From a virus, in IMG/VR virus record IMGVR_UViG_3300023212_000371, positions 121,051-185,050 of that record: a DNA stretch of 64,000 nucleotides, one strand, 5' to 3'. A program made the translations under genes and the position numbers. Below the pieces are notes generated by a model, which did no database searches, was not told the origin of the DNA, and saw only the letters and a program-made list of their open reading frames with translations. The number at the start of each line of letters is the position of its first letter. Position 1 is the first letter of the stretch. This document shows, in pieces, positions 4,279 through 58,403 of this stretch.

Positions 4279-4739
4279 AGAAACCAGTTAAACCATCCAC
4301 TCCACAACAACCTATTAAACCACAGGAGTATCATACGGTAGTTCATAATCTAGCTCCCTTTCATTATGGTAGAGCAACATATACCTTTGAAGAGCTATCC
4401 AGTAAACTTCCTTCCAACGTTGATCCCAAGTCTTTGAAGTTTGAATCAGTTTATGTTGATGGTAATGATTACTACGGTAGTGGCGATTATTATTTTACGA
4501 TCCACTATGTCTGTCAAGAAAAAAATACTCGCTATGTTAGCGATTGTAAAAAATATGATAAAGACCTCATTAAGTATGAGAAGAAAGTAGAACAGCATAA
4601 GAAAGATTTGCTTAAATATGAAGAAGAAATGGTAGCCTTTACTGCCTGGGAAAAGGAAGATAATGCAAAGAAAGAGCTCGAAGAATTAAAGAAGTTGGAG
4701 AAACGGATTGCTCAGCTGAAGAAAAAGGTAAAGTCTTGA
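4275..4739 (+). CDS. Hypothetical coiled-coil protein
   Basis: ATGA overlap with upstream gene; K/E-rich C-terminus. Confidence 0.55.
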   Translation: MKKPVKPSTPQQPIKPQEYHTVVHNLAPFHYGRATYTFEELSSKLPSNVDPKSLKFESVYVDGNDYYGSGDYYFTIHYVCQEKNTRYVSDCKKYDKDLIKYEKKVEQHKKDLLKYEEEMVAFTAWEKEDNAKKELEELKKLEKRIAQLKKKVKS

Positions 4740-5383
4740 AATATTTTCTGGATTGTGAGTTCAATGAACGTGGATATGAACATCGGATCGAACTGATCTC
4801 GATTGCCTTGGTGCGAGAGGATGGCGAGGAATACTATGCGGTAGCTAGAGATGGTTGGGATCCTTGCCATTGCGATGGTTGGTTAATGGCTAATGTTTTG
4901 CCGTATCTCTCCAAGGATGGCAGGGTGGATGATGTATCTGATTTGATTGTCCAAATGTATTATGGCATGAAAGTAGATCCTCGTATTCCTTGGGCAAGCA
5001 GAACCTGGATTCGAAATGGTATCCTTGATTTCATTGCTCCCGATGAACATCCTGAGTTCATTGGATTTTTTTCCGATTACGACTGGGTGCTCTTTTCCCA
5101 ACTCTTCGGGCGAATGGTAGATCTTCCTCCACACTTCCCCAAGTATTGTCTCGACATCAAGCAGATGATGGTTGCCAAAGGTCTCCAAAAGAGCGATTTA
5201 CCCAAGCAAGAAGAAACACAGCATAATGCTTTGGCAGACGCTCGGCATATGAGACGAATGTATCAAGCTATTGTAGAAAAGGCGTCAATTACCATCAGCA
5301 CAAAGGCTGATGGCTTGTCCCTAATTATTGCTAATCGAGACATTAACTCCCCTGATTTACCAGATCAGGATCATAGTCGTTAG
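4736..5383 (+). CDS. DEDDh 3'-5' exo(ribo)nuclease (Rv2179c-like); C-terminus extended by an inserted element
   Basis: YFLDCEF, SDYDW, HNALADA; residues encoded after 5283 come from the element (empty site reads GAA AAG GCA TGA). Confidence 0.8.
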   Translation: MKYFLDCEFNERGYEHRIELISIALVREDGEEYYAVARDGWDPCHCDGWLMANVLPYLSKDGRVDDVSDLIVQMYYGMKVDPRIPWASRTWIRNGILDFIAPDEHPEFIGFFSDYDWVLFSQLFGRMVDLPPHFPKYCLDIKQMMVAKGLQKSDLPKQEETQHNALADARHMRRMYQAIVEKASITISTKADGLSLIIANRDINSPDLPDQDHSR

Positions 5384-5703
5384 GCTGATTGACGACAGCC
5401 TAACCTGGGTAGCATATAGCATCCAAGAAGTGTTGAGGTTCTCTAAATAGCGATCATAACCGTCTCTCTTTCCAAATAAAGGAAAGTGCCTTTAATCTCG
5501 ATCATCTCAACTGGTCTAACCTATTGTTTTTTTATTCCTCAAAGGATTGATTGAGGAAACCTGTTAACATTAACTCTTTCTGCTATAACTTAGATAGCAA
5601 AATAATATATAACCTTTATTTTAAGGTTGTCAAGAGAAAAAAGAAAGAAAAATGGCCATTCCTCCCATAGCACAAGGCTATGGGTATCTTTGCCTAAGAG
5701 ATC
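5284..5703 (-). mobile_element. ORF-less IS200/IS605 element (TnpB-type guide-RNA cassette), 420 bp
   Basis: Both terminal hairpins match the TnpB element at 50913-52133; internal minus-strand GTCAATCAGCCTA (tnpB V-N-Q-P tail motif); removal restores a GC-ATGA stop/start overlap. Confidence 0.85.
5604..5633 (-). promoter_or_regulatory. Sigma70-like promoter inside the element, firing toward its guide end
   Basis: Minus strand TTGACA-16 nt-TATATA (or 18 nt-TATATT). Confidence 0.65.
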
Positions 5704-5967
5704 ATGAAAAAGTTTATCATCCATAGAGACTCCATTATTGAAGTGGAATGCACTCAACTCATGCCCGCTGACGATCCATCCGTGGCTTGGCTTCCCAAAG
5801 AGGAATATAAAGCTAGAATTGAAGCACCATCTACCTTGTTTGAAAAAGTTAATAACAAATTAGAAAAACCAAAATGGTATAGTTTTGCTTTTTACGATAC
5901 TTTAGAACAAGCTAAAGAGGCAGCAGCCAGCGATATTCGAGTAGTGTTGGAACGTAAACAAGATTAA
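5704..5967 (+). CDS. Hypothetical protein, possibly frameshifted near its 3' end
   Basis: ORF starts at the ATGA flanking the element; coding-like sequence continues in another frame (IKHGTNFVEEDIKKQI). Confidence 0.5.
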   Translation: MKKFIIHRDSIIEVECTQLMPADDPSVAWLPKEEYKARIEAPSTLFEKVNNKLEKPKWYSFAFYDTLEQAKEAAASDIRVVLERKQD

Positions 5968-6061
5968 ACATGGTACCAACTTCGTTGAAGAAGACATTAA
6001 AAAGCAAATAAAAATTATAATATTATGTTTATGAAAATTCAAGACATAGGAGATTAAACAA

Positions 6062-6678
6062 ATGACAACACGATTTCAAGTTGGAGATTACGTTTTGCGG
6101 ATGGAAGCAGATTTTTCAAGCGGCATATTAGTGCATGGCGGTATTTATCAAATTGCCGGCGTTATTAATGATCCTCGGACTATTAAGTTGATAGGGTTTG
6201 GGGGAGTTGGGATGTCCATAGGTTTAAATTGATTAAATCTCCCTACGCTCAATCTTGTCCTTGTGGCATCCATTGGAGTCAATTACCAATGACTAAAGTC
6301 CTTGGCTTGTCGCTCATCCTACCATAAGCAGGAGGTTATTTTTTAATGGCAACAATAGGCTGATTGACAGCAGCCCTTAATAAAGTTTGGCGTTTCTAAT
6401 AGCGACCCTTTAAAAAAACCGTTTGCTTATTCGATCATAAATGATCGAGTTAAGTGCCTTCTAGGTCTCGATTCGCTAAACATAGGATAATAGCTTTCTA
6501 ACTCATCTCTTACCTCTTTCTGTTACATTTGGGTAGCAAAAGATATATAACCACCATTCTTGGAAGTTTTTTAGAAAAAGAAAGAAAAAGCAATTCCTCC
6601 CATGATTAAAATCATGGGCTTCTTTGCTAAGAAGATCGTGAATGCCCTCAACATATTCAAGAAGTAAAAGCTTTCTAA
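6062..6678 (+). pseudogene. Small phage gene interrupted by the 6278-6637 element plus a 1-nt shift in a G-run near 6200
   Basis: Removing the element gives ...SCPCGIHW-S-ECPQHIQEVKAF* in one frame. Confidence 0.6.
6278..6637 (-). mobile_element. ORF-less IS200/IS605 element (TnpB-type guide-RNA cassette), 360 bp
   Basis: End hairpins at 6278 and about 6591; interior shares ordered blocks with the 5284 element; minus strand encodes A-A-V-N-Q-P-I-V-A tnpB-tail remnant; followed by GTGA. Confidence 0.85.
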
Positions 6679-7067
6679 ATAAAGAAATAACGTAGATCTT
6701 CTATTCGGCAATCGAACTTAGGAGCAAATTCTTTAGCATCCGCTAAAGTTGGAAATAAAATATCTCCAAAGTTATGGGCATGCATCATCCCCTTTCCTTT
6801 GATATGCATCAGCCAAAGGTAATGTCCTAGTTCATGAGCCGCAGTAGTTTGAAATACAATATCAGTTTTTAACCGATTTGGGATAAGGAATAATTCTCGG
6901 ACATTATTAGCTCGATATAAACATAGTCCCAGCACTTTGGTTTTGTAGTAGCCGTCCCATTTGACTACTTCAGGATGTTCAGGGTAGGCTCGAGTTATTA
7001 GTCCATCTTTTCCAAAAGTATTGCGATTAGTATTTGTTAAATCAAAGTAAATATCAATTTTAAACAT
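6675..7067 (-). CDS. Matrixin-like zinc metalloprotease domain protein
   Basis: AAHELGHYLWLMH (HExxHxxxxxH) followed by Met-turn-like GMM. Confidence 0.65.
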   Translation of the reverse strand: MFKIDIYFDLTNTNRNTFGKDGLITRAYPEHPEVVKWDGYYKTKVLGLCLYRANNVRELFLIPNRLKTDIVFQTTAAHELGHYLWLMHIKGKGMMHAHNFGDILFPTLADAKEFAPKFDCRIEDLRYFFI

Positions 7068-8882: not shown

Positions 8883-9995
8883 ATGGCTATTAGATTAAGT
8901 AATACAACCATTGATCAAAAATTATATGGTTATAGCATTCGACGCCTTGATGATTGTAGCAACGCTAAAATAACTGATAAAGTAATGTGGTCGTGTTTAA
9001 ATTGCGGACATGCATGGAAAACAACTATACGCAAAATTGTGTGGAAAGAAACGGGTTGTCCCCAATGCGCCGGTAATATTAAATTATCTAATGCAATAAT
9101 TGATCAAAGATTAATTAATAGAGACATTCGAAGAATTGGTGATTATGTTAATGCTAATAGTAAGATTGAATGGCAATGTTTAAATTGTAAATATATGTGG
9201 ATCACAACACCCAGAAGTGTTGTGGATCTTAAAACTGGATGTCCATTTTGTGCAGGCAATTTACGATTAACAAATCAAATAATTGATCAGAAATTAATTG
9301 GGCGGAATATCCAAAGAATTGAAAATTATAATGGCGCTCATTTAAAAATACTTTGGAATTGCATGACTTGTAATTATGAGTGGAGCGCAACACCTGGCCA
9401 CATTCTTAATGGTGGTCGTGGGTGTCCTCGATGTGCTAATAATATTCGCTTGACCAACGAAATAATAGATCAAAGATTGATTAATAGGTCAATCAAGAGG
9501 ATCGGCGAATATTATAACTCCTGCACCAAAATTGACTGGCAATGTTTGACATGTATGCATCGCTGGAAAGCGTTGCCACCTAATGTTGTTAGTCTCGAAA
9601 AGGGATGTCCAAAATGTAGTACCATAGGTATCAATGAAGCGTTAATGATCAGTATTTTTCATCAATATAATTTAGAATTTGAACCCCATTATTCTATTAG
9701 AAATATAGATAATGTAGAGCGCAATCTTATTTTTGATACCTATTTCCCTCTAATAAAATTGGCCATTGAATATAATGGAAAACAACATTATATTCCAACA
9801 GGGTTTTTCAATAGTGATAATCCTGAAGAAGAGTTTAAAAAACAGCAAGAAAGAGATGAATATAAAAGATTATTCTGTAAGAGAAATTCAATCCAATTAA
9901 TAGAAATTGATGGTAGAAAATTCTACAATGAAAGACTCAAAAAGTATCTAATATATGATGTGGTGCCCATGATAAAGGAAATGGGTATTAAATGA
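8883..9995 (+). CDS. Zn-ribbon repeat protein with C-terminal PD-(D/E)xK-like endonuclease (putative homing endonuclease)
   Basis: Four W-x-C-xx-C...GCP-x-C repeats; FDTYFPLIKLAIEYNGKQH. Confidence 0.75.
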   Translation: MAIRLSNTTIDQKLYGYSIRRLDDCSNAKITDKVMWSCLNCGHAWKTTIRKIVWKETGCPQCAGNIKLSNAIIDQRLINRDIRRIGDYVNANSKIEWQCLNCKYMWITTPRSVVDLKTGCPFCAGNLRLTNQIIDQKLIGRNIQRIENYNGAHLKILWNCMTCNYEWSATPGHILNGGRGCPRCANNIRLTNEIIDQRLINRSIKRIGEYYNSCTKIDWQCLTCMHRWKALPPNVVSLEKGCPKCSTIGINEALMISIFHQYNLEFEPHYSIRNIDNVERNLIFDTYFPLIKLAIEYNGKQHYIPTGFFNSDNPEEEFKKQQERDEYKRLFCKRNSIQLIEIDGRKFYNERLKKYLIYDVVPMIKEMGIK

Positions 9996-12674: not shown

Positions 12675-13007
12675 ATGTTTAAATCTCAAGATTATATATA
12701 TTTGGGGTATGATTCAAAAACAGATCAATTTCGATACGAAACCACTATCGTGGATGATGATTTTACTGAAATAGTTATCGCTGCCGCCTCCGCTGATGCT
12801 ATAAGAGCCGTTGTACGAGCCGCTGTCTTGATCGATGTTTATTCTCGAAGAAATCTCAACGTAGCTGGTAACTTAGCGTTATTAATGCAATACGTAGAAA
12901 ATAAGTTATGGATGGATATTAAACAGCAAATTGAAGAGTATCAGAAATTTGTTCCCGCATATCCAAAATACCATGACCAAGTGATGGACTATCTAATATT
13001 TATGTGA
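12675..13007 (+). CDS. ~110-aa multicopy family protein, copy 1
   Basis: MF...VDDDFxE-[variable]-LIDVYSRRNLNVAGNL...YHDQVMDYLIFM. Confidence 0.8.
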   Translation: MFKSQDYIYLGYDSKTDQFRYETTIVDDDFTEIVIAAASADAIRAVVRAAVLIDVYSRRNLNVAGNLALLMQYVENKLWMDIKQQIEEYQKFVPAYPKYHDQVMDYLIFM

Positions 13008-17888: not shown

Positions 17889-17968
17889 CAAGTGGTGAAG
17901 TGTGGATATGAAAGGTGTGGGTCTAGTACTAGTCCCCGGTAGTTTTAGTTAGAAGAACATCGTCAATT

Positions 17969-18063: not shown

Positions 18064-18402
18064 ATGTTTCGATCTTGCAGTATTACATCCAGATCTAACA
18101 TACCTGTAATTAGTCAAGAGAGACCGAATTATGAGTATGAAGTTACTATCGTGGATGATGATTTTTTTGAAACCAAAACTGTTTTTGCCAACGTCGCTAC
18201 TGAGGCAGCCGCCATCGCATTGATCGATATTTACTCTCAAAAAAATCTCAACGTAGCTGGCAATCTAGCGTTGTTGATGCGATATGTAGAACATAATTTT
18301 CCAGCGTTAGATATTAACTTGCAAATCAGGGCATACCAAAATAATATTCCTGAATATTCAAAATACCATGATCAAGTAATGGGTTATCTGGTGTTTTTAT
18401 GA
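18064..18402 (+). CDS. ~110-aa multicopy family protein, copy 2
   Basis: Conserved DDDF, LIDIYSQKNLNVAGNL, YHDQVMGYLVFL. Confidence 0.8.
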   Translation: MFRSCSITSRSNIPVISQERPNYEYEVTIVDDDFFETKTVFANVATEAAAIALIDIYSQKNLNVAGNLALLMRYVEHNFPALDINLQIRAYQNNIPEYSKYHDQVMGYLVFL

Positions 18403-18426
18403 AAGTTATTAGATATTAGTAAAAAA

Positions 18427-18756
18427 ATGTTTCGATCTTTTAATTATAAATACTTTGGATATAACGGTGAAAAACTTCATCGATATCAAGTTATCATTGT
18501 GGATGATGATTTTATTGAAACTGCCACCGTGTTTGCCGTCGCTCCCGGAAGCATCGCCACTGAAGCCGCTGCCCTGATCGATATTTATTCTCGAAGAAAT
18601 CTTAATGTGGCTAGTAACTTGGCACTGTTGATGCAATATACAGAACATGTATGTCCATGGATAGATATTAAGTGGCAAATCGAGTGTTATCAAAAAGAAA
18701 TTCCTGAATACCAGAAATACCACGATCAAATAATGGATTATTTAATATTTTTGTGA
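18427..18756 (+). CDS. ~110-aa multicopy family protein, copy 3
   Basis: Conserved DDDF, LIDIYSRRNLNVASNL, YHDQIMDYLIFL. Confidence 0.8.
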   Translation: MFRSFNYKYFGYNGEKLHRYQVIIVDDDFIETATVFAVAPGSIATEAAALIDIYSRRNLNVASNLALLMQYTEHVCPWIDIKWQIECYQKEIPEYQKYHDQIMDYLIFL

Positions 18757-26719: not shown

Positions 26720-27055
26720 ATGTTTAAATCCTATAGCTGGAAATATCTGGATTATGACTCAAAAACAGATCAATGGCGATACGAAATCACTATCATGGAT
26801 GTTGATTTTACTGAACCCGTTGCCGCCTCGGCCATCACAGCTGACTGGACCATCAACGACATCGCCGACGCCCTGATCGATATTTACTCTCGAAGAAATC
26901 TCAATGTGGCTGGCAATTTAGTATTGTTTATGCAATATGTAGAAAATAAATGGCCATGGCGAGATATTAAACGGCAAATTAAATGGTATCAGAAATACGT
27001 TCCCGGATATCAAAAATATCATGATCAAGTAATGGACTATCTAATATTTATGTGA
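26720..27055 (+). CDS. ~110-aa multicopy family protein, copy 4
   Basis: Family motifs. Confidence 0.8.
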   Translation: MFKSYSWKYLDYDSKTDQWRYEITIMDVDFTEPVAASAITADWTINDIADALIDIYSRRNLNVAGNLVLFMQYVENKWPWRDIKRQIKWYQKYVPGYQKYHDQVMDYLIFM

Positions 27056-27067
27056 TAAAGAAGAAAA

Positions 27068-27415
27068 ATGTTTAGATTTTATGATTGGAAATGTTTTGAA
27101 TCTATTTATGAAACAGAAAAATCGCAATATGAAATTACTATCGTGGATGATGATTTTATTGAAATCGAAATGATCAGCGTGGGCTTAAGAGGCAATGGTT
27201 CTCTCACCGATATCATCGCCACTTTTCACGCTATAATCAATACTTATTCTCGAAGAAATCTCAATGTAGCTGGAAACCTAGTTTTGTTGATGCAGTTTAT
27301 AGAACATAAATGGCCATCTATGGATATTAAATGGCAAATTGAGATTTGCCAGCAATTCATTTCAGAGTATCGGGAATACCATGATCAAGTAATGGATTAT
27401 TTAATATTTTGGTGA
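27068..27415 (+). CDS. ~110-aa multicopy family protein, copy 5
   Basis: Family motifs; longest variable segment (23 codons). Confidence 0.8.
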   Translation: MFRFYDWKCFESIYETEKSQYEITIVDDDFIEIEMISVGLRGNGSLTDIIATFHAIINTYSRRNLNVAGNLVLLMQFIEHKWPSMDIKWQIEICQQFISEYREYHDQVMDYLIFW

Positions 27416-31254: not shown

Positions 31255-31390
31255 ATCTTAACTCTTCGATATAGAGTTTGAAGCAGTTTAACAAGCCCCT
31301 TACGGGGAAGGTTTTCTGAGGATTTTTCCTTTCTCTCACGAGAGAATAAAGTCCTTGTTTTTCTATGAACAATTCCTCAAAAGGAGAATT

Positions 31391-31436
31391 CAATTCTTCC
31401 CACGGCTAAAGTCGTGGTCTCTTCGAACCATTTTTC
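31391..31436 (+). mobile_element. 46-bp solo IS200/IS605 end hairpin (IsrB-type right end)
   Basis: CAATTCTTCCCACGGCTAAAGTCGTGGTCTCTTCGAACCATTTTTC matches 47517-47562; followed by ATGA start codon. Confidence 0.75.
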
Positions 31437-32861: not shown

Positions 32862-32889
32862 GTCAATTACCAATGACTAAAGTCCTTGG
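32862..32889 (+). mobile_element. Truncated IS200/IS605 end hairpin abutting tRNA-Ser
   Basis: 28 nt identical to 6278-6305. Confidence 0.75.
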
Positions 32890-32992: not shown

Positions 32993-33038
32993 GTCAATTA
33001 CCCATGATTAAAATTATGGGCTTCCTTGCTTAGAGATC
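32993..33038 (+). mobile_element. 46-bp solo hairpin with left-end 5' part and right-end 3' part
   Basis: GTCAATTACCCATGATTAAAATTATGGGCTTCCTTGCTTAGAGATC followed by ATGA. Confidence 0.75.
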
Positions 33039-43267: not shown

Positions 43268-43600
43268 ATGTTTAAATTCTTTGAATGGAAATATCTAGGT
43301 TATGATCCAAAAACAGATCAGTATCGATCCGAAATCACTATCGTGGATGATGATTTTACCGAAACCCTCGTCGCCGCCTCCCCAATCGGCGGCGAAGCCG
43401 TTGTTCCACCCGCCACCACCGCCTTAATCGATATTTATTCTCGAAGAAATCTCAATGTGGCTGGTAATCTCGTGTTGTTGATGCAAGATATAGAAAGTAA
43501 ATGGCTAGACATTAAACTACAAATCGAATATTATCAAAAATATATTCCTGAATATTCAAAATATCACGATCAAGTAATGGGTTATCTAATATTCACATGA
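43268..43600 (+). CDS. ~110-aa multicopy family protein, copy 6
   Basis: Family motifs; most C-rich variable segment (43364-43423). Confidence 0.8.
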   Translation: MFKFFEWKYLGYDPKTDQYRSEITIVDDDFTETLVAASPIGGEAVVPPATTALIDIYSRRNLNVAGNLVLLMQDIESKWLDIKLQIEYYQKYIPEYSKYHDQVMGYLIFT

Positions 43601-44120: not shown

Positions 44121-44664
44121 ATGGATATTAAACCTTTAAGAGATCATGTTGTCGTAGTGAACTACCTTTGCCTAAGGGCAAAAGCTTCGCGTTTCATTGA
44201 CCTAATACTACTAGCGCCTCACCGCGTTTTTGTTTAATGTCCGACTATATTCCGTAACCAGACAGGTTTTCATTACGCTATTATGACTTGGTTTTCGTCA
44301 ATCTTAGCTTAATGTTATATATCACCATATGCGTACTTTTGTTAAAATATTTTTGAGAAAACGCATTCATCTCTCGCCTAAAGGCGAGAGTCTTCTGCTA
44401 TCAATCATGATAAAAGATGCTGCCCCCGATAAAATAGCGGGAGGATTATTATATAAGCCCGATATTGTGGAGGAAGAATTTATTACCGGAACTGTGGTGG
44501 CTATTGGTTCTGGTAAAATTGCTGCAGACGGTTCTACCGTTCATTTGGAAATATCCATTGGTGACAAGATTGTTTTCAATAGACATGCACCAGTTAAATT
44601 GAAAATCAAAGATCAAGACTATTTAGTTCTGCGCGAAGATCAGGTATTGTGCATTTTGCCATGA
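44121..44664 (+). pseudogene. groES: Co-chaperonin GroES split by a 250-bp element
   Basis: 44121-44156 MDIKPLRDHVVV joined to 44407-44664 MIKDAAPDKIAGGLLY...GTVVAIGSGK...LREDQVL gives a 97-aa GroES; AGGAG RBS upstream. Confidence 0.88.
44157..44406 (-). mobile_element. ORF-less IS200/IS605 element (TnpB-type guide-RNA cassette), 250 bp
   Basis: Minus strand ends ...TCAATGAAACGCGAAGCTTTTGCCCTTAGGCAAAGGTAGTTCAC; other end hairpin CTCTCGCCTAAAGGCGAGAG; minus-strand TTAACA-18-TATATA (44345-44316). Confidence 0.85.
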
Positions 44665-45923: not shown

Positions 45924-46217
45924 ATGCCAATGATGCCAGAAAAGACTATAGTTTATCTTGTGATAGAAGAAGATCATGATCATATTGATGGTCATTGCCA
46001 TCATGAAATTATTGGCGGCTTTTTTACTCAGGAAGAGGCGCTGGCGAAATGTGCTGAGATGGAGCAAAAACAAAAAGCACGACATGCTTTGACTAATAAA
46101 TTAAGGCAAGCTAAGAATAGTTTTGATGAAGAAACGAATCGTTTTTTCCTGTGCCAACTGAAGAGCGAACAGATTGTTATTTCAATTTTGCCACTCAATC
46201 TTGTCAATAACCCATGA
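45924..46217 (+). CDS. Hypothetical protein; last codons supplied by the IsrB element end
   Basis: Empty site would read ...PLNL-M-I-stop. Confidence 0.55.
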   Translation: MPMMPEKTIVYLVIEEDHDHIDGHCHHEIIGGFFTQEEALAKCAEMEQKQKARHALTNKLRQAKNSFDEETNRFFLCQLKSEQIVISILPLNLVNNP

Positions 46218-46520
46218 CTAAAGTCATGGGCTTGTGCGAAGGATCCTAGTCAGATTCTTTTGATCAAGACTAAAATATTGTACTAGACAAAGAGAGAAGA
46301 AAGGTTATTTAACCAAACAATATTTCAAATAGGCAAATCAGGATCGTTATGACGAGACTGGAAAAGATATGCTACTGGATGTTTCGCTAGTCTGTAGCCG
46401 CATTTCCGCAAGGAGATGCCAATACCTTATCGATAATTGTAAGGTATTCGCTGTGTTTTGCTTATGTCGAAGCGAGTTGAACAAGGCACGTAAGTGCAAT
46501 TTTTGAGGAAATAATAGAAA
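46203..46520 (+). ncRNA. omegaRNA (HEARO-like) scaffold; guide would be the flank 5' of 46203
   Basis: GTCAATAACCC hairpin, TTGATCAAGACTAA, GGATGTTTCGCTAGTC, GTCGAAGCGAG blocks; 3' boundary approximate. Confidence 0.7.
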
Positions 46521-47562
46521 TTGGTTCCCGTTATCGATAACCACAAACAACCATTAATGCCTTGCTCTGAAAAGAGAGCACGGAGACTTATGGAGAAAGG
46601 CAGCGCTATCTCATATTGGCAGAAAGGTATCTTCTGTGTCCGTCTAACCAGAGAACCTTTTAACCGAAAGACACAACCCATTGCTCTTGGCATTGATCCA
46701 GGAAGTAAAAGAGAAGGATATACTATTGCTACTAGAAAGGCAGTAGTTCTCAATATCACAACTAATACTACAGATTGGGTCAAAGATCATATTGATACTC
46801 GAAGACAACTACGAAGAACAAGAAGAACTCGTAAAACCCCCTATCGTTCTTGTCGAGAAAATAGAGCTACTTTGAGGAAAGATCGAGTTCCTCCTTCCAC
46901 CAAAGCTAGGTGGAATGCTAAATTGCGAATGGTTAAATTTCTTCTGAAAATTATTCCTATTACCATTATCAATGTAGAAGATATTGCCGCTGCCACTAAG
47001 AAAGGGCAGGCAAAGTGGAATCTTTCTTTCTCTCCTTTAGAAGTGGGAAAGGTTTGGTTCTATCAAGAAATAGAAAACCTTGGAGTTCAGCTTCTCAAAA
47101 CCCAAGGACATCAAACTCAAGAAAAACGAGATCAACGAGGCTTTCAAAAATCATATTCCAAGCTTAATTATTCTTGGAATGCTCATAACGTAGATAGCCA
47201 TGTTCTTGCGGAGATAGCGATGGAAACAGAAATCCTTCCATATTATGGATTGTGGAAAGTGGAGTTTTTAGAGTTTCATCGAAGACAACTTCATGTTCAG
47301 AATCCAATCAAGAATAATGTTAGAAAACAATATGGCACAACTATTTCTATAGGAATGTCAAGAGGATCTGTTGTAAGATATAAAAACAAGTTTTATTATC
47401 TTGGTGGAAGTAGCAAAGGTAAAGTTTCAATTCATAGTATTATTACAGGAAAAAGAGTTAAACAATCCGTCAAAAAGAGAGATATTGACGTCTTATATAC
47501 ACAGAATAGGAGAGTTCAATTCCTCCCACGATTAAAATCGTGGGTCTTCTTGAACCATTTTC
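46203..47562 (+). mobile_element. IS200/IS605 IsrB (OMEGA) element
   Basis: Left hairpin at 46203, omegaRNA-like leader, RRXRR ORF, right hairpin 47517-47562, ATGA at 47563. Confidence 0.88.
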
Positions 47563-50912: not shown

Positions 50913-52133
50913 GTCAATCACCACCAACACAAGGTTGATGGCTTGCCGCTAACATTACTGTTGCGGCATATGGCTCATTGACCAGAGCCTGCTCCTTGTC
51001 TATCAAGGAGAGAAGTTCGCAAGCATTTTGCTTGCTCTGCTTTTCAAGCAGATAATTGTTTCGGATGTTGATAGCAGCGTTGAGATCTGCATTACTTTTA
51101 AATCCACACTTACCACAATTAAACAGAGATCTGTCCCGATTAACTTTCTCGGTATGTCCACAGTTAGAACATTTTTGGGAAGTATAGCGAGCATCTACTT
51201 TAACTATTTGCTTCCCAAGCTCTTCTGCTTTATATACCAAAAATTGTTCTAATTGGTAGAACGTCCAATTAGCAAGCCAACCGTTTAATACTTTTCCTTT
51301 CCTATGTTTTCTGATCCCTGTTAAATCTTCCAAAACGAACACATCATATGGCAAACTAACTAACCATTTGCTGATGATATGATTAATATTACGGCTGAAC
51401 CGCATTTCTCGTCCGGAACGCTTTTTGAGAAGCCGTTTCGCAGAGCGAGTGCCTTTTGCCATAAGTTGTCTTTTCACAAAAAGAAACTTGCGTTTCTGCT
51501 TTCTGATCTCCCATGCATTATATTGTTGTCCGTCCGACAACGAGACGACATTATATAATCCACGATCCACTCCAATAACTTTGTCTGATTGTTTAGTTGT
51601 CGGAGTAGAAGAGGTAAAAGTTAGGTTAGCCTTGAAGCAATTCTGTTGCTTGTTGAAGCCAATAGTAGCGGACTGAAACTTCCAACCACTGTATTTCTTA
51701 AAATAAGAAGGAATGCTAATAAGTTGGCGGATTCGTTTTCCGCTCCAAGAGAAGGAAAGAAGATTGCCCCGAAGAGAAACGGTATTCTTATTGTAGCGAA
51801 TAGCGGAGTAGGGTTTTTTGATAGGCTTGAATTTAAACTTAACAGCTTTAACCGCTTCCAAAGCCTGATCTCGAACGCTTTGAATAACACAGGATGGAAT
51901 GTTAGGGAACTCTTGGCGGAGTTAACGAGTTTGGAAAGCCCATTCTACGTGTCGATTGAAGATATCGGAGCAAGTTTTTAGGTAATCGAGGAAGCCGGCG
52001 GGAACTTCAATTTTGATGGGCAGAGTTCGTTGCATTCAAAACATATATGTCATTATTGATAGATGTTGAAAGAAAAAGAAAGGGGCAGCTATTCTCATAG
52101 CACAGGACTATGGATTTCGTTGCCTAAGAGATC
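50913..52133 (-). mobile_element. IS200/IS605 (IS1341-like, no tnpA) TnpB element
   Basis: Minus strand ends GCAAGCCATCAACCTTGTGTTGGTGGTGATTGAC; other end hairpin CATAGCACAGGACTATG...GCCTAAGAGATC then ATGA. Confidence 0.88.
50914..52035 (-). pseudogene. tnpB: TnpB with in-frame TAA near the N-terminus
   Basis: ATG 52035 MQRTLPIKI...WAFQTR* (TAA 51924-51922) LRQEFPN...; RuvC GVDRG, LEDL, Zn finger CSNCG...CGKCG, NADLNAAINI intact. Confidence 0.85.
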
Positions 52134-54488: not shown

Positions 54489-55315
54489 TCAAAAGCCCCT
54501 TTCGATATCCCGGTTCTAAAAATAAAATGATTGTCCCAATAATGGAACATCTAATTCCATTAATAGAAAAATATAAAGTATATTGCGAGCCGTTTATTGG
54601 AGGGGGCTCTATTTTGTTAGAGATCGCAGAAAAATATCCCAAATTAGAACTTTTTGCCAATGATCGCGACGATTGGTGTTCAAGTTTTTGGCAAGTAATG
54701 TCTGATCCTGATACCACCAATCTAAATAGATTGCTCCAACTATTGGATACTCAACCTACCATCGAACATTTCTATCAACTTCGCGAAACTCCATCAAATG
54801 ATGTAATGGATTGTGCTTACCGTGCACTGTATTATAACCGCTGTTGTTTTAGTGGGATTGTGATGAAGGATGATAAAGGGATGGTCAAATCCAATCCCAT
54901 TGGGGGCAAAAATCAAAAATCCAAATGGAAAGTTGACTGTCGCTATAATGCCAAAAAGTTAAAGGAAAAAGTCATCAAATGTCATCAATTATTAGCTGGA
55001 AGAACAACAGTGGAATGCAAGGACTTTTCGGAATATGATATGTTAATCAAATCAGATTATCCTGCCTATTGCGATCCTCCATATGTGATTAAAGGCGGAA
55101 TGCTTTATTCTGAAAATATGTCACTGATAGAACATAAGCAGTTAGCTAATGTTCTGAACAAACGAAATAATTGGATTTTGTCATATGATGATTGCGATGA
55201 AGTTAGAGAAATGTATAAAAATAATCAGATAACTACTATTAGGGCCGCATATACAATAAATGGCAAGAAAGAAATGTGGAAAAATAATAACGAATTGATT
55301 ATTGAACCGATATGA
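54485..55315 (+). CDS. DNA adenine methyltransferase (Dam-like)
   Basis: SPFRYPGSK, CEPFIGGGS, YCDPPY, WILSYD. Confidence 0.9.
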   Translation: MIKSPFRYPGSKNKMIVPIMEHLIPLIEKYKVYCEPFIGGGSILLEIAEKYPKLELFANDRDDWCSSFWQVMSDPDTTNLNRLLQLLDTQPTIEHFYQLRETPSNDVMDCAYRALYYNRCCFSGIVMKDDKGMVKSNPIGGKNQKSKWKVDCRYNAKKLKEKVIKCHQLLAGRTTVECKDFSEYDMLIKSDYPAYCDPPYVIKGGMLYSENMSLIEHKQLANVLNKRNNWILSYDDCDEVREMYKNNQITTIRAAYTINGKKEMWKNNNELIIEPI

Positions 55316-56472
55316 AAAAAGAAAGGAAAAAGTTAAGCAATGAAGAGCTTTTAGAAAATATTAAACTTTATCTAAAAGTAAATAAGCCGGGCTCGTCTTG
55401 TTTAGGTGTTGAAAGACGAGCGGTTTATATAATTTACGCCACAATTAAATGTGAAAACGGCCACATTTGGACAACAAAATTTTCTCATATAAAATCGGGG
55501 CATTGGTGCGCAGCATGTTTGGGTATTGCAAAGAAAAGTCTAACAGATGTTCAAATATTTCTAGATCATAATTATAGTGGTTATGTTTGTATAAGTGATG
55601 ATTATTTTAATACACATATCGACCTCAACATAAAGTGCAATAAAGGGCATTCATTCAAAATTAGTTATAAACATTTAGTCCAAAATTCAGTTGCAGGTAA
55701 ATGTCCAATTTGTCACCATAAAAGAAGAAGACGATTGAGTATTGGGCATATCCAGAACTATCTAGACACTAATCATTGTGGTTCCAAATGCATAAAAATG
55801 TATCACAAAATCAATAATATAAAAACATATCTGTTAATAGATTGTGGTAATGGACACCAATTTGGAATTAGATCGGATGCTCTATTTTTAGGGACATGGT
55901 GTCAAAAATGTAGAAAGATTAAAAGCAAAAACGAAATTATTGCGATAATAACTGAAAGATGTTCAGAGTCCAAGTTGTTGGATGAAAATTACGTTAATGA
56001 TAGATACCTGATGTCAATTTACTGTGGTAATGGTCATCAATGGAAAATTAATGCTAATAATTTAAAAGATGGACATTGGTGTCCTAAGTGTAGTGAAAGT
56101 TTTGGCGAAACTATAACTCGTAAGTATTTTGAAGAAATTTTTGGATTTCAGTTTCCAAAGGTAAGACCAAATTGGCTCAAAAATCCTATCACTGGATATA
56201 ATTTAGAACTTGATGGATATTGTGCTGAATTAAATATAGCCTTCGAATACCAAGGAGATCAGCATTTTAAAAAAATACCCTTCTTTAAAATGACTGATGA
56301 GAGACTTATCTTGTCTCAGCAAAGAGATCAATTTAAAAGGAATTTATGTCAAAAAATGAACATATCTCTCATTGAGGTGCCACAATTAACTTATTATTTT
56401 AGAAAAGACGATCTATATAGGCTTATAATTGATGCTTGTTTGAAGTTGAATATTTCGCCAAAGAATACATAA
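55312..56472 (+). CDS. Zn-ribbon repeat protein with C-terminal endonuclease (putative homing endonuclease)
   Basis: Repeated C.NGH.W...WC..C; LELDGY...IAFEYQGDQH. Confidence 0.75.
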   Translation: MKKERKKLSNEELLENIKLYLKVNKPGSSCLGVERRAVYIIYATIKCENGHIWTTKFSHIKSGHWCAACLGIAKKSLTDVQIFLDHNYSGYVCISDDYFNTHIDLNIKCNKGHSFKISYKHLVQNSVAGKCPICHHKRRRRLSIGHIQNYLDTNHCGSKCIKMYHKINNIKTYLLIDCGNGHQFGIRSDALFLGTWCQKCRKIKSKNEIIAIITERCSESKLLDENYVNDRYLMSIYCGNGHQWKINANNLKDGHWCPKCSESFGETITRKYFEEIFGFQFPKVRPNWLKNPITGYNLELDGYCAELNIAFEYQGDQHFKKIPFFKMTDERLILSQQRDQFKRNLCQKMNISLIEVPQLTYYFRKDDLYRLIIDACLKLNISPKNT

Positions 56473-57722: not shown

Positions 57723-58055
57723 ATGTTTCGATCCTTTGACTGGAAATATCTGGATTATGATCCAACAACAAATCAATCTCGATACGAAATTATTTTTGTA
57801 GATGATGATTTTATCGAGACCACAATCGCTGCCTCCATTGCAGACTATGTCGTTGTCACCGTTTCCATCGCCCTAATCGATATTTACTCTCGAAGAAATC
57901 TCAATGTAGCTGGTAATCTAGTTTTGCTGATGCAATATATAGAAAATAAACGGTCATGGGCAGATATTAAATGGCAAATCGAGGAATACCAAAAATGCAT
58001 TCCAGAATATCAAAAATACCATGATCAAGTAATGGACTATCTAGTATTCATGTGA
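57723..58055 (+). CDS. ~110-aa multicopy family protein, copy 7
   Basis: Family motifs. Confidence 0.8.
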   Translation: MFRSFDWKYLDYDPTTNQSRYEIIFVDDDFIETTIAASIADYVVVTVSIALIDIYSRRNLNVAGNLVLLMQYIENKRSWADIKWQIEEYQKCIPEYQKYHDQVMDYLVFM

Positions 58056-58067
58056 GAAAGAAGTAAA

Positions 58068-58403
58068 ATGTTTCAATCTTTTGATTGGAGATATCTGGGT
58101 TATAATCTAAAAACAAATCAATCTCAATACGAAACTACTTTCGTAGATGATGATTTTATCGAAACAGTCGTCGTTTCCTTCATCAGCACCATCAATGACG
58201 GATCTTCCCTCGCCGCTGTTCTGATTGATATTTACTCTCAAAGAAATCTCAATGTAGCGGGCAATCTTGTGTTGTTAATGCAATATATAGAAAATAAATG
58301 GCCATGGATAGATATTAAGTGGCAAATCGAGCGTTATCAAAAAGAAGTTCCTGAATACCAGAAATACCACGATCAAGTAATGGATTATCTAATATTCATG
58401 TAG
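58068..58403 (+). CDS. ~110-aa multicopy family protein, copy 8
   Basis: Family motifs. Confidence 0.8.
   Translation: MFQSFDWRYLGYNLKTNQSQYETTFVDDDFIETVVVSFISTINDGSSLAAVLIDIYSQRNLNVAGNLVLLMQYIENKWPWIDIKWQIERYQKEVPEYQKYHDQVMDYLIFM

Follow-up and report, generated by a model that had tools for sequence, protein, structure and literature searches.

Gene-less IS200/IS605 cassettes in a large phage genome probably retain the guide-RNA module of tnpB elements

The stretch of DNA analyzed here (the window, 64,000 nt) comprises bases 121051-185050 of the 198,652-bp IMG/VR virus record IMGVR_UViG_3300023212_000371, for which CheckV gives a completeness of 46%. Coordinates without a prefix are those of the window, and coordinates prefixed with g follow the numbering of the 198-kb record. 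The setting is that of a phage, with a match to RIIA (E = 3e-82), a phage-type helicase and several HNH homing endonucleases; three tRNAs and a GroES gene in the window are in line with this context. The subject of this study is a set of three elements of the IS200/IS605 type, c1 (5284-5703, 420 nt), c2 (6278-6637, 360 nt) and c3 (44157-44406, 250 nt), that lack an open reading frame (ORF) and are oriented on the minus strand. An earlier note, made from the sequence alone, had read them as guide-RNA cassettes for TnpB nucleases, with promoters of their own. At gathering thresholds, tRNAs are the sole Rfam families in the window, and a blastn search of the GenBank phage collection with the region 5200-6700 gave zero matches.

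Results

All three elements have the hairpins at both ends and the minus-strand TATATA boxes that had been described for them, at the positions given, with c3 carrying its own pair of end hairpins. The left end (LE) lies at the high coordinate, adjoining TCAT in c1 and c3 and TCAC in c2, and the right end (RE) lies at the low coordinate, where the sequence finishes in …TTGAC (c1 and c2) or …TTCAC (c3). The low-coordinate end is identified as the RE, and the TCAT side as the LE, because the tnpB stop codon of a full-length element at 50913-52133 falls within the terminal ATTGAC. Read along the minus strand, c1 and c2 open with GATCT…, a hairpin and GGAGGAAT, the left end of c3 being different, and the elements terminate in a hairpin followed by TAATTGAC (c1 and c2) or GTAGTTCAC (c3). 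No ORF of more than 55 amino acids is present inside c1, c2 or c3, nor do they have terminal inverted repeats or a target-site duplication, the flanks differing on the two sides. Their coding residue is confined to degenerate remnants of TnpB C-terminal codons: the tnpB-tail motif TAGGCTGATTGAC is found, as noted earlier, at 5381-5393 in c1 and 6356-6368 in c2, and the motif GTCAATCAGCC, which corresponds to the VNQP codons of the TnpB C-terminus, is retained without an ORF.

In c1, the RE hairpin occupies 5293-5315, and the subterminal LE hairpin, the presumed TnpA recognition site according to the sequence and an end-motif scan, occupies 5664-5684. These ends are 92% (LE) and 91% (RE) identical to those of an intact tnpB element at g100328-101579. 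A sigma-70-like minus-strand promoter at 5604-5633 (TTGACA, 16-18 nt, TATATA/TATATT) matches the consensus at 11 of 12 positions, with TTGACA at 5633-5628 and TATATA at 5611-5606. The TTGACA/TATATA motif lies at an equal distance from the LE in c1, in its ORF-less sister c1b (g118466-118846) and in the intact tnpB element, in which TTGACA-N17-TATATA is situated 6 nt ahead of the tnpB ATG. The promoter that the cassettes had been said to possess is thus kept and, to judge from this arrangement, is the tnpB promoter itself, inherited, with predicted activity. The target-adjacent motif (TAM) of c1, recognized from the sequence and end scans, is TCAT at 5704-5707 (plus-strand ATGA), and its complement ATGA is the former stop/start overlap between the two flanking phage genes. 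By position and the TnpB rule, the predicted 16-nt guide is the flank 3' of the RE (5268-5283, minus strand), which is antisense to the end of an exoribonuclease gene. The insertion shifted the stop of this gene, which encodes an Rv2179c-like 3'-5' exoribonuclease (4736-5383), so that it runs for 33 extra codons into the element, and an 87-aa ORF downstream of c1 has its start codon in the TAM complement (ATG, 5704).

The boundaries of c2 enclose an RE hairpin at 6287-6306 and an LE hairpin at 6599-6618, both on the minus strand. Its TAM, from end scans, is TCAC (6638-6641), and the predicted 16-nt guide, assigned by position, is 6262-6277. A consensus scan finds a -10-like TATATA box at 6544-6549, where GGTTATATATCTTTTGCTA is unchanged across all four c2 copies; the TAMs of these copies are TCAC, TCAC, TTAC and TCAC. 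The LE-adjacent motif is thus TCAC/TTAC in the c2 family and TCAT in c1, c1b, c3, the tnpB elements and the IsrB family described below.

The third element, c3, belongs to a different tnpB subfamily, as judged from homology to the 3' end of its parent. A promoter-like arrangement of TTAACA, 18 nt and TATATA is visible in its minus-strand sequence at 44316-44345 (TTAACA 44345-44340, TATATA 44321-44316) and is absent from the consensus-scan list. c3 interrupts a GroES (Cpn10) gene (44121-44664) after codon 12 (MDIKPLRDHVVV / MIKDAAPD…), to which it is antisense. A GroES homologue that is 44% identical, in a 446-kb viral contig, is uninterrupted, and an ORF beginning within c3 (44329) is in frame with the downstream part of GroES.

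Smaller relics accompany these elements. Terminal-only minis of 46 nt, consisting of TCAT, an LE-like start, one hairpin and TAATTGAC, are located at 32993-33038, 1038-1083, g54750 and g53781, and a lone c2-like RE lies at 32862.

The retained right-hand part of c1 and c2 corresponds to a TnpB guide RNA (omega-RNA). The motif GGCTG-NN-GTCAATCAGCCTA occurs at many tnpB 3' ends in cyanobacteria, Chloroflexota, Bacillota, archaea and viral contigs, where it encodes the A-x-V-N-Q-P of the TnpB C-terminus. Twenty-seven elements from other genomes, each having a tnpB frame longer than 220 codons, were aligned over the segment from this motif to the RE and used to train a covariance model (CM R1, 85 model positions). 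RNAalifold folds the alignment into stem 1, a second stem and the RE hairpin, with compensatory changes in 12 of 21 base pairs. Stem 1 (GGGCUG/CAGCCU) is invariant, and its 8-nt loop holds GUCAAU, which is complementary to the terminal (A/G)UUGAC. GUCAAU and the terminal AUUGAC are invariant in all members and hence show no covariation with each other; from these invariant complementary hexamers we infer a pseudoknot between the stem-1 loop and the terminus.

CM R1 was searched against the whole phage record. Matches covering model positions 1-85, on the element strand and ending exactly at the RE boundary, were obtained for c1b (82.0 bits), the intact element g100328 (78.1 bits), the c2 copies c2b and c2c (73.3 and 73.0 bits), c2 itself (6278-6378, 73.3 bits, E = 8e-15), the omega-RNA core of the full-length tnpB element in the window (50913-50992, 61.5 bits) and c1 (5284-5403, 50.7 bits, E = 1.3e-9). 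Since a model that was never trained on c1 or c2 matches both end to end, both keep a complete omega-RNA core, which upholds their reading as TnpB-type, minus-strand cassettes. The core of c1 is made up of stem 1 with the GUCAAU loop, an extra hairpin, stem 2, the RE hairpin and AUUGAC, and its lower score results from the extra hairpin of ~40 nt between stems 1 and 2. On the minus strand, both cores fold with unusual stability (z = -4.3 for c1 and -2.9 for c2). Among the four c2 copies, the core is the least variable part, with 10% variable columns against 23% for the middle (p = 0.008); the corresponding values are 14.5% for the LE and 36% for the promoter spacer.

With c3, CM R1 scores 14.8 bits (E = 0.27) over the RE hairpin alone, because c3 belongs to another tnpB/omega-RNA subfamily. 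The end of c3, GGUCAAUGAAA…GAAGC-hairpin-GGUAGUUCAC, recurs as a conserved 3' end in elements of this subfamily from Scytonema, Plectonema and Nostoc, and c3 thus appears to retain its omega-RNA, as judged only from homology to the 3' end of its parent. A candidate pseudoknot between GUGAG and UUCAC in c3 was dropped, as TnpB relatives keep UUCAC while the partner varies.

BLAST within the genome and end-motif scans located the relatives of each cassette. In addition to c1b, there are two further copies of c2 (c2b and c2c, at g94032-94386 and g120029-120377, 90-94% identical) and a second copy of c3 (g67650-67897, 91% identical). A second phage record, IMGVR_UViG_3300023212_000464, contains another c2 copy (locus L009, 92%) and at least four copies of c3, such that c2 is known from three loci here and one there. 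All copies of c2 and c3 have different flanks and therefore occupy unrelated loci. The two records share c2 and c3 at 92% identity, whereas their alignable phage genes are 77-78% identical, and the c1/c2 neighborhood gives no alignment between them; movement of the cassettes between phages, or via a host pool that they share, thus outpaces the divergence of the phages. ORF-less cassettes of 370-440 nt with the same core recur in the genomes of the cyanobacteria Phormidesmis and Leptolyngbya.

Full-length partners could be assigned to each cassette type. That of the c1 family is the intact element at g100328-101579, outside the window, which has TCAT as its TAM and encodes an uninterrupted 375-aa TnpB (g100350-101477) with OrfB_IS605 and TNB domains and visible D/E/D and zinc-finger motifs. 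A second full-length element with c1-family ends is the one at 50913-52133 (minus strand); its tnpB, in other respects well preserved, carries an in-frame TAA (51922-51924), and the broken protein is 35% identical to the intact TnpB. The partner of c3 is an element ending at g192573 with an intact 396-aa TnpB (g191378-192565). The last 113 nt of c3 are 85% identical to the 3' end of this element, and c3 also keeps a 26-nt internal fragment of tnpB, which makes it a clear product of internal deletion. The partner of c2 is a locus of the second phage record (L006, TAM TCAC), with 91% identity in the LE and 90% in the last 107 nt, which include the c2 core. Thus, the expectation of a cognate TnpB encoded in the genome holds in part: an intact 375-aa TnpB and a TnpA are present in the record, and a TnpB of the c2 type is found only in the second phage. 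Record-wide, four TnpB TNB-domain matches and one TnpA match were obtained. The TnpA (g45424-45816) is an intact 131-aa Y1 transposase with HUH and Tyr motifs (Y1_Tnp, 141 bits), located in an IS605-type element at ~g44330-45960, outside the window.

Within the 198-kb record, the sole match of each predicted 16-nt guide is to its own flank, consistent with the proposal that each cassette specifies a guide against its own empty allele. At an occupied site the RE end, not a TAM, precedes the guide; judged from the sequence, this arrangement follows the usual logic of self-protection. None of the three reconstructed sequences of empty sites has a match in IMG/VR. The relatives of the flanking exoribonuclease and GroES genes are only 38-44% identical, too distant to supply an orthologous unoccupied allele for comparison.

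Between the promoter and the core lies a middle region that the earlier note had called hairpin-rich and had proposed, as a ~200-nt 5' extension, to be an undescribed RNA domain. It spans 5404-5603 in c1 (minus strand; function doubtful) and 6379-6543 in c2; from the -10 box to stem 1, c1 has 205 nt and c2 has 168 nt. The ordered blocks that c1 and c2 share there reflect real homology, as the global alignment of the two middles has z = 5.6 relative to dinucleotide shuffles, none of 500 of which reaches its score. Folding of this region is ordinary (z = -1.1 for c1 and -0.4 for c2), in contrast to the cores, and hairpins do not exceed expectation. A hairpin of c2 at 6443-6460 (UCGAUCA-UUUA-UGAUCGA) shows one C-G to U-A double change and further G-U-compatible changes that fit the minus strand only, and c1 has a hairpin of different sequence at the matching place. 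The 30-40 nt directly upstream of stem 1 are invariant in the four c2 copies.

The middle has no similarity to that of c1b, to any tnpB of this genome or to L006, and it is absent from c3. Searches for the pattern TTTTGCTAYCYAA…CAGAAAGAG returned, among viruses, the known L009 copy alone, plus chance matches in genomes. The pattern ATCGAGA…AAGGCACTT gave at least 172 matches in metagenome and viral collections; none of the matches listed has an omega-RNA core downstream, and all are therefore attributed to chance. Derivation of the middle from decayed tnpB coding sequence was also considered. The tblastn traces, which correspond to the TnpB RuvC-III region, are marginal (E = 0.047 for c1b and E = 0.004 for c2c, the latter driven mostly by VNQP) and insufficient to claim it. 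The region is most likely a leader or spacer rather than a new domain, and on balance it appears to correspond in behavior to the 5' part that an omega-RNA precursor can dispense with.

The same style of RE is used by a second type of element in this genome. An IsrB/IscB-like (RRXRR) element at 46203-47562, oriented like the cassettes on the minus strand, has its gene and a HEARO-like omega-RNA (46203-46482) on the plus strand. It is one of four copies of 1.36 kb that are 86-88% identical, the others being g65133-66499, g110843-112206 and g114403-115760. The 358-aa RRXRR protein has no detected HNH domain, and its ORF reads through the LE to stop 35 nt outside the element (47597). The match of 46203-46482 to Rfam HEARO (RF02033) is weak (23 bits) and starts from model position 1. 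Gene-less versions of ~455 nt at g73379-73835, g75938-76386 and g99327-99787 retain the LE (~104 nt) and exactly the RE-proximal 283 nt that coincide with the HEARO match, and are the IsrB counterpart of the TnpB-type cassettes; a partial copy lies at 31280-31436. In the region 5200-6700, HEARO gives zero matches at E <= 10 and no other credible Rfam family is present; a HEARO/IscB omega-RNA identity for c1 and c2 was rejected. That tnpB and iscB point in opposite directions with respect to the RE is in agreement with earlier work (Meers et al., 2023; PMC10055086).

Taken over the whole record, there are about 23 IS200/IS605-derived insertions, amounting to ~15 kb or 7.5% of its length. At least 17 have the top strand on the minus strand and four have it on the plus strand. 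Nearly all adjoin ATGA on the gene strand, that is, stop/start overlaps and start codons. The inventory includes intact TnpA, TnpB and IsrB-like genes, one broken tnpB, and seven TnpB-type and three IsrB-type gene-less cassettes, one of which (c3) splits GroES.

Other repeated features are also found. Free-standing HNH homing-endonuclease genes (PHROG 559/1314/374) lie at 8883-9995, 55312-56472, g103954-105324 and g187774-189312, so protein-based selfish elements are abundant too in this genome. A paralogous family of ~110-aa proteins comprises eight genes with 60-89% nucleotide identity, three as tandem pairs (12675-13007, 18064-18756, 26720-27415, 43268-43600 and 57723-58403), and recurs in the second phage record at 77-78%. 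A family of short hairpins, …TGCTCAG-NNNN-CTGAGA…, is present at 17962, 21394, 26652 and 53829. Two of these are preceded on the plus strand by GTCAAT, which is RE-like on the minus strand, and the hairpins may be further terminal-only elements of another IS605 subfamily.

Discussion

The comparisons above make it probable that c1, c2 and c3 are gene-less derivatives of tnpB elements, of the type called palindrome-associated transposable elements (PATEs), which retain a usable guide-RNA module and borrow their enzymes in trans. They have subterminal palindromes at both ends, with ends 91-92% identical to those of an intact tnpB element; they are inserted 3' of an LE-adjacent motif without duplication; they measure 250-420 nt with no ORF of more than 55 aa; and c2 and c3 are present at several unrelated loci. 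For c1 and c2, the scaffold abuts the RE, with full-length CM R1 matches ending at 5284 and 6278. A cognate TnpB is available in the record for c1 and c1b (375 aa, TCAT) and for c3 (396 aa).

In the proposed mechanism, internal deletion would have removed the nuclease gene from an IS200/IS605 tnpB element and left the LE with its TnpA hairpin beside TCAT/TCAC, the tnpB promoter region, a core of ~85-120 nt and the RE boundary. TnpA acting in trans would excise the cassettes and re-insert them as single strands 3' of TCAT or TCAC. Minus-strand transcription from the retained promoter would proceed through the scaffold into ~16 nt of flank, and TnpB supplied in trans (for c1 and c1b, presumably the intact protein of g100350-101477) would bind the core and trim the non-essential 5' part. 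The complex could then cut any copy of the site without the element (TAM plus flank), and recombination would restore or spread the insertion. The guide-RNA segment has persisted in each of four lineages of deletion derivatives (c1/c2, c1b, c3, IsrB type), far beyond the end hairpin that the transposase needs, and a guide-RNA function is therefore the best reading. The interpretation of the earlier note is thus partly supported, although its novelty was overstated. ORF-less IS200/IS605 elements with a guide RNA are known from both bacteria and archaea, and the cassettes as such therefore do not represent a novel type of element; what is unusual is that they reside in a phage and that the elements are so dense there.

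Several observations weigh against this reading. The TATATA box of c2 stands without a -35 element in the consensus scan. A TCAC-type cognate TnpB for c2 was not found in the 198-kb record, which is 46% complete, and is known only from the second phage; the c2 TAMs, TCAC and TTAC, differ from the TCAT of the sole intact TnpB of the same style in the record. The tnpB within the window is broken by the TAA at codon 38, with its RuvC and zinc-finger motifs intact. The core of c1 is divergent, as its lower score and inserted hairpin indicate. The end hairpins of the TnpA's own element have a UUUA-type loop like those of the c2 and IsrB families, whereas the loop of c1 is CUUGUG, which makes it uncertain whether this TnpA mobilizes c1. 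Recent origin, or cis needs of transposition, could also account in part for the retention of the 100 nt next to the RE. Most of these points would also suit inert, decaying remnants, of the MITE (a miniature transposable element with inverted repeats) or PATE kind, perhaps moved by TnpA, in which the RNA is unused and the core is intact only because the deletion was recent. The 46-nt minis at 32993-33038 and 1038-1083 show that decay continues, and IS605-type elements usually end up with their core deleted (PMC3119063). We nonetheless consider inert remnants unlikely: the middles of c1 and c2 have diverged strongly, yet both elements give a full-length match to the covariance model; variation among the c2 copies is significantly lower in the core than in the middle; and the guide segment kept by three TnpB-type lineages and the IsrB type far exceeds the ~50 nt per end that TnpA needs.

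Other readings assign the cassettes a different role. That the ~200-nt middle of c1 and c2 is a new functional RNA domain is improbable. The homology between them, the invariant 30-40 nt upstream of stem 1 and the double change in the c2 hairpin would be expected of such a domain, but the region folds no better than shuffled sequence, is missing from c1b, c3 and the full-length elements, and is confined to two lineages, with no relatives among the matches listed from viral, genome and metagenome scans; moreover, the equivalent region of ISDra2 is dispensable and trimmed (PMC10097598). Co-option as cis-regulatory modules, providing an antisense promoter, a terminator formed by the LE hairpin and a T-run, or a ribosome-binding site for the downstream ATG, is more doubtful still. 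The placement exactly at ATGA stop/start junctions or start codons that suggests it is accounted for by the TCAT target motif alone, and although plus-strand LE hairpins with T-rich tails were flagged as terminator-like and the minus-strand promoter of c1 faces the upstream exoribonuclease gene, the same cassettes occupy unrelated loci and the disruption of a conserved GroES gene by c3 looks parasitic rather than useful. Finally, the RE that c1 and c2 have in common with the IsrB elements (GTCAAT plus hairpin), which in the IsrB element matches the first positions of Rfam HEARO, might indicate IscB/IsrB-type (HEARO) cassettes for which the plus strand is the one read and the guide lies 5' of GTCAAT. 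The lack of any HEARO match, the strong minus-strand match to the TnpB model, the VNQP codon remnants and the homology of the c2 tail to a tnpB 3' end practically refute this idea.

If c1, c2 and c3 are indeed gene-less cassettes with usable guides, a broader role can be envisaged, which we put forward as a speculation with a rather low chance of being correct: the more than 10 dispersed gene-less guide cassettes of the TnpB and IsrB types, which would have multiplied within a lineage of very large phages and be served by a few intact nucleases, might during mixed infection cut all unoccupied alleles of a related phage simultaneously. This would drive homing at multiple loci together with marker exclusion, in the manner of the homing-endonuclease network of T4 but guided by RNA, and the 92%-identical cassettes in phages with genes at most 78% identical would be a trace of such a dispersed-guide system. 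Co-infecting phages have been listed as possible targets of non-restorative transposon homing (2026 review, PMC13565253), and RNA-guided homing between them has so far been discussed in theory only (PMC13565253). Should the guides be used, this phage would offer a natural system for trans-acting omega-RNAs and for such homing. For biochemical work, the cassettes provide natural scaffolds that are compact (86-120 nt) and have small matching TnpBs (375-396 aa).

Among known systems, virus-borne mini-CRISPR arrays without cas genes, reportedly described by Medvedeva and colleagues in 2019, are likewise said to be orphan guides whose effector is located elsewhere, perhaps directed against related viruses. 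Their guides are acquired spacers in repeat arrays, whereas here the guide is fixed by the site of transposon insertion. Classical MITEs were rejected as a class for these cassettes, which have neither terminal inverted repeats nor a target-site duplication, as was the cyanobacterial MITE 'Nezha', a different class with terminal inverted and direct repeats. IStrons (PMC10690162) resemble the cassettes in belonging to the IS605 family, in being able to reside inside genes and in carrying an omega-RNA at the 3' end. However, no match to an intron family was found, and an IStron or group I intron identity was rejected; because c3 lies antisense to GroES, that gene could not be rescued by splicing as in IStrons. 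The HEARO/IscB-IsrB elements (RF02033) share the RE (GTCAAT plus hairpin) with c1 and c2; c1, c2 and c3 are of another type and use the opposite strand.

A close parallel is provided by the ISDra2 omega-RNA (Nakagawa et al., 2023; PMC10097598), in which a pseudoknot arises by pairing of the stem-1 loop with nucleotides -5 to -3, the core measures 116 nt, and the stretch between -231 and -117 can be dispensed with and is trimmed off. As in ISDra2, the scaffold of the cassettes ends at the RE, the guide is drawn from the flank, the stem-1 loop would pair with the terminus, and a dispensable 5' part may precede the core. The sequence families differ, with a TAM of TTGAT in ISDra2 and of TCAT/TCAC here, and in the cassettes no tnpB ORF overlaps the scaffold and the pseudoknot is deduced from invariant hexamers.

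The class to which the cassettes are best compared is that of the PATEs of Haloquadratum (PMC3119063) and Geobacillus stearothermophilus (PMC10055086), which are alike in deriving from tnpB elements by deletion of the core. The 52-bp terminal-only PATEs of Haloquadratum (PMC3119063) resemble the 46-nt single-hairpin minis, and PATEs often encode omega-RNAs that have to be used in trans by the TnpB of other copies (Meers et al., 2023; PMC10055086). In phages, insertion sequences are considered to be uncommon and to carry a cost (PMC10286775). Unlike the known PATEs, the cassettes described here reside at high density in a large phage genome, combine TnpB-type and IsrB-type versions side by side, and have copies in common with another phage at an identity above that of the phage genes.

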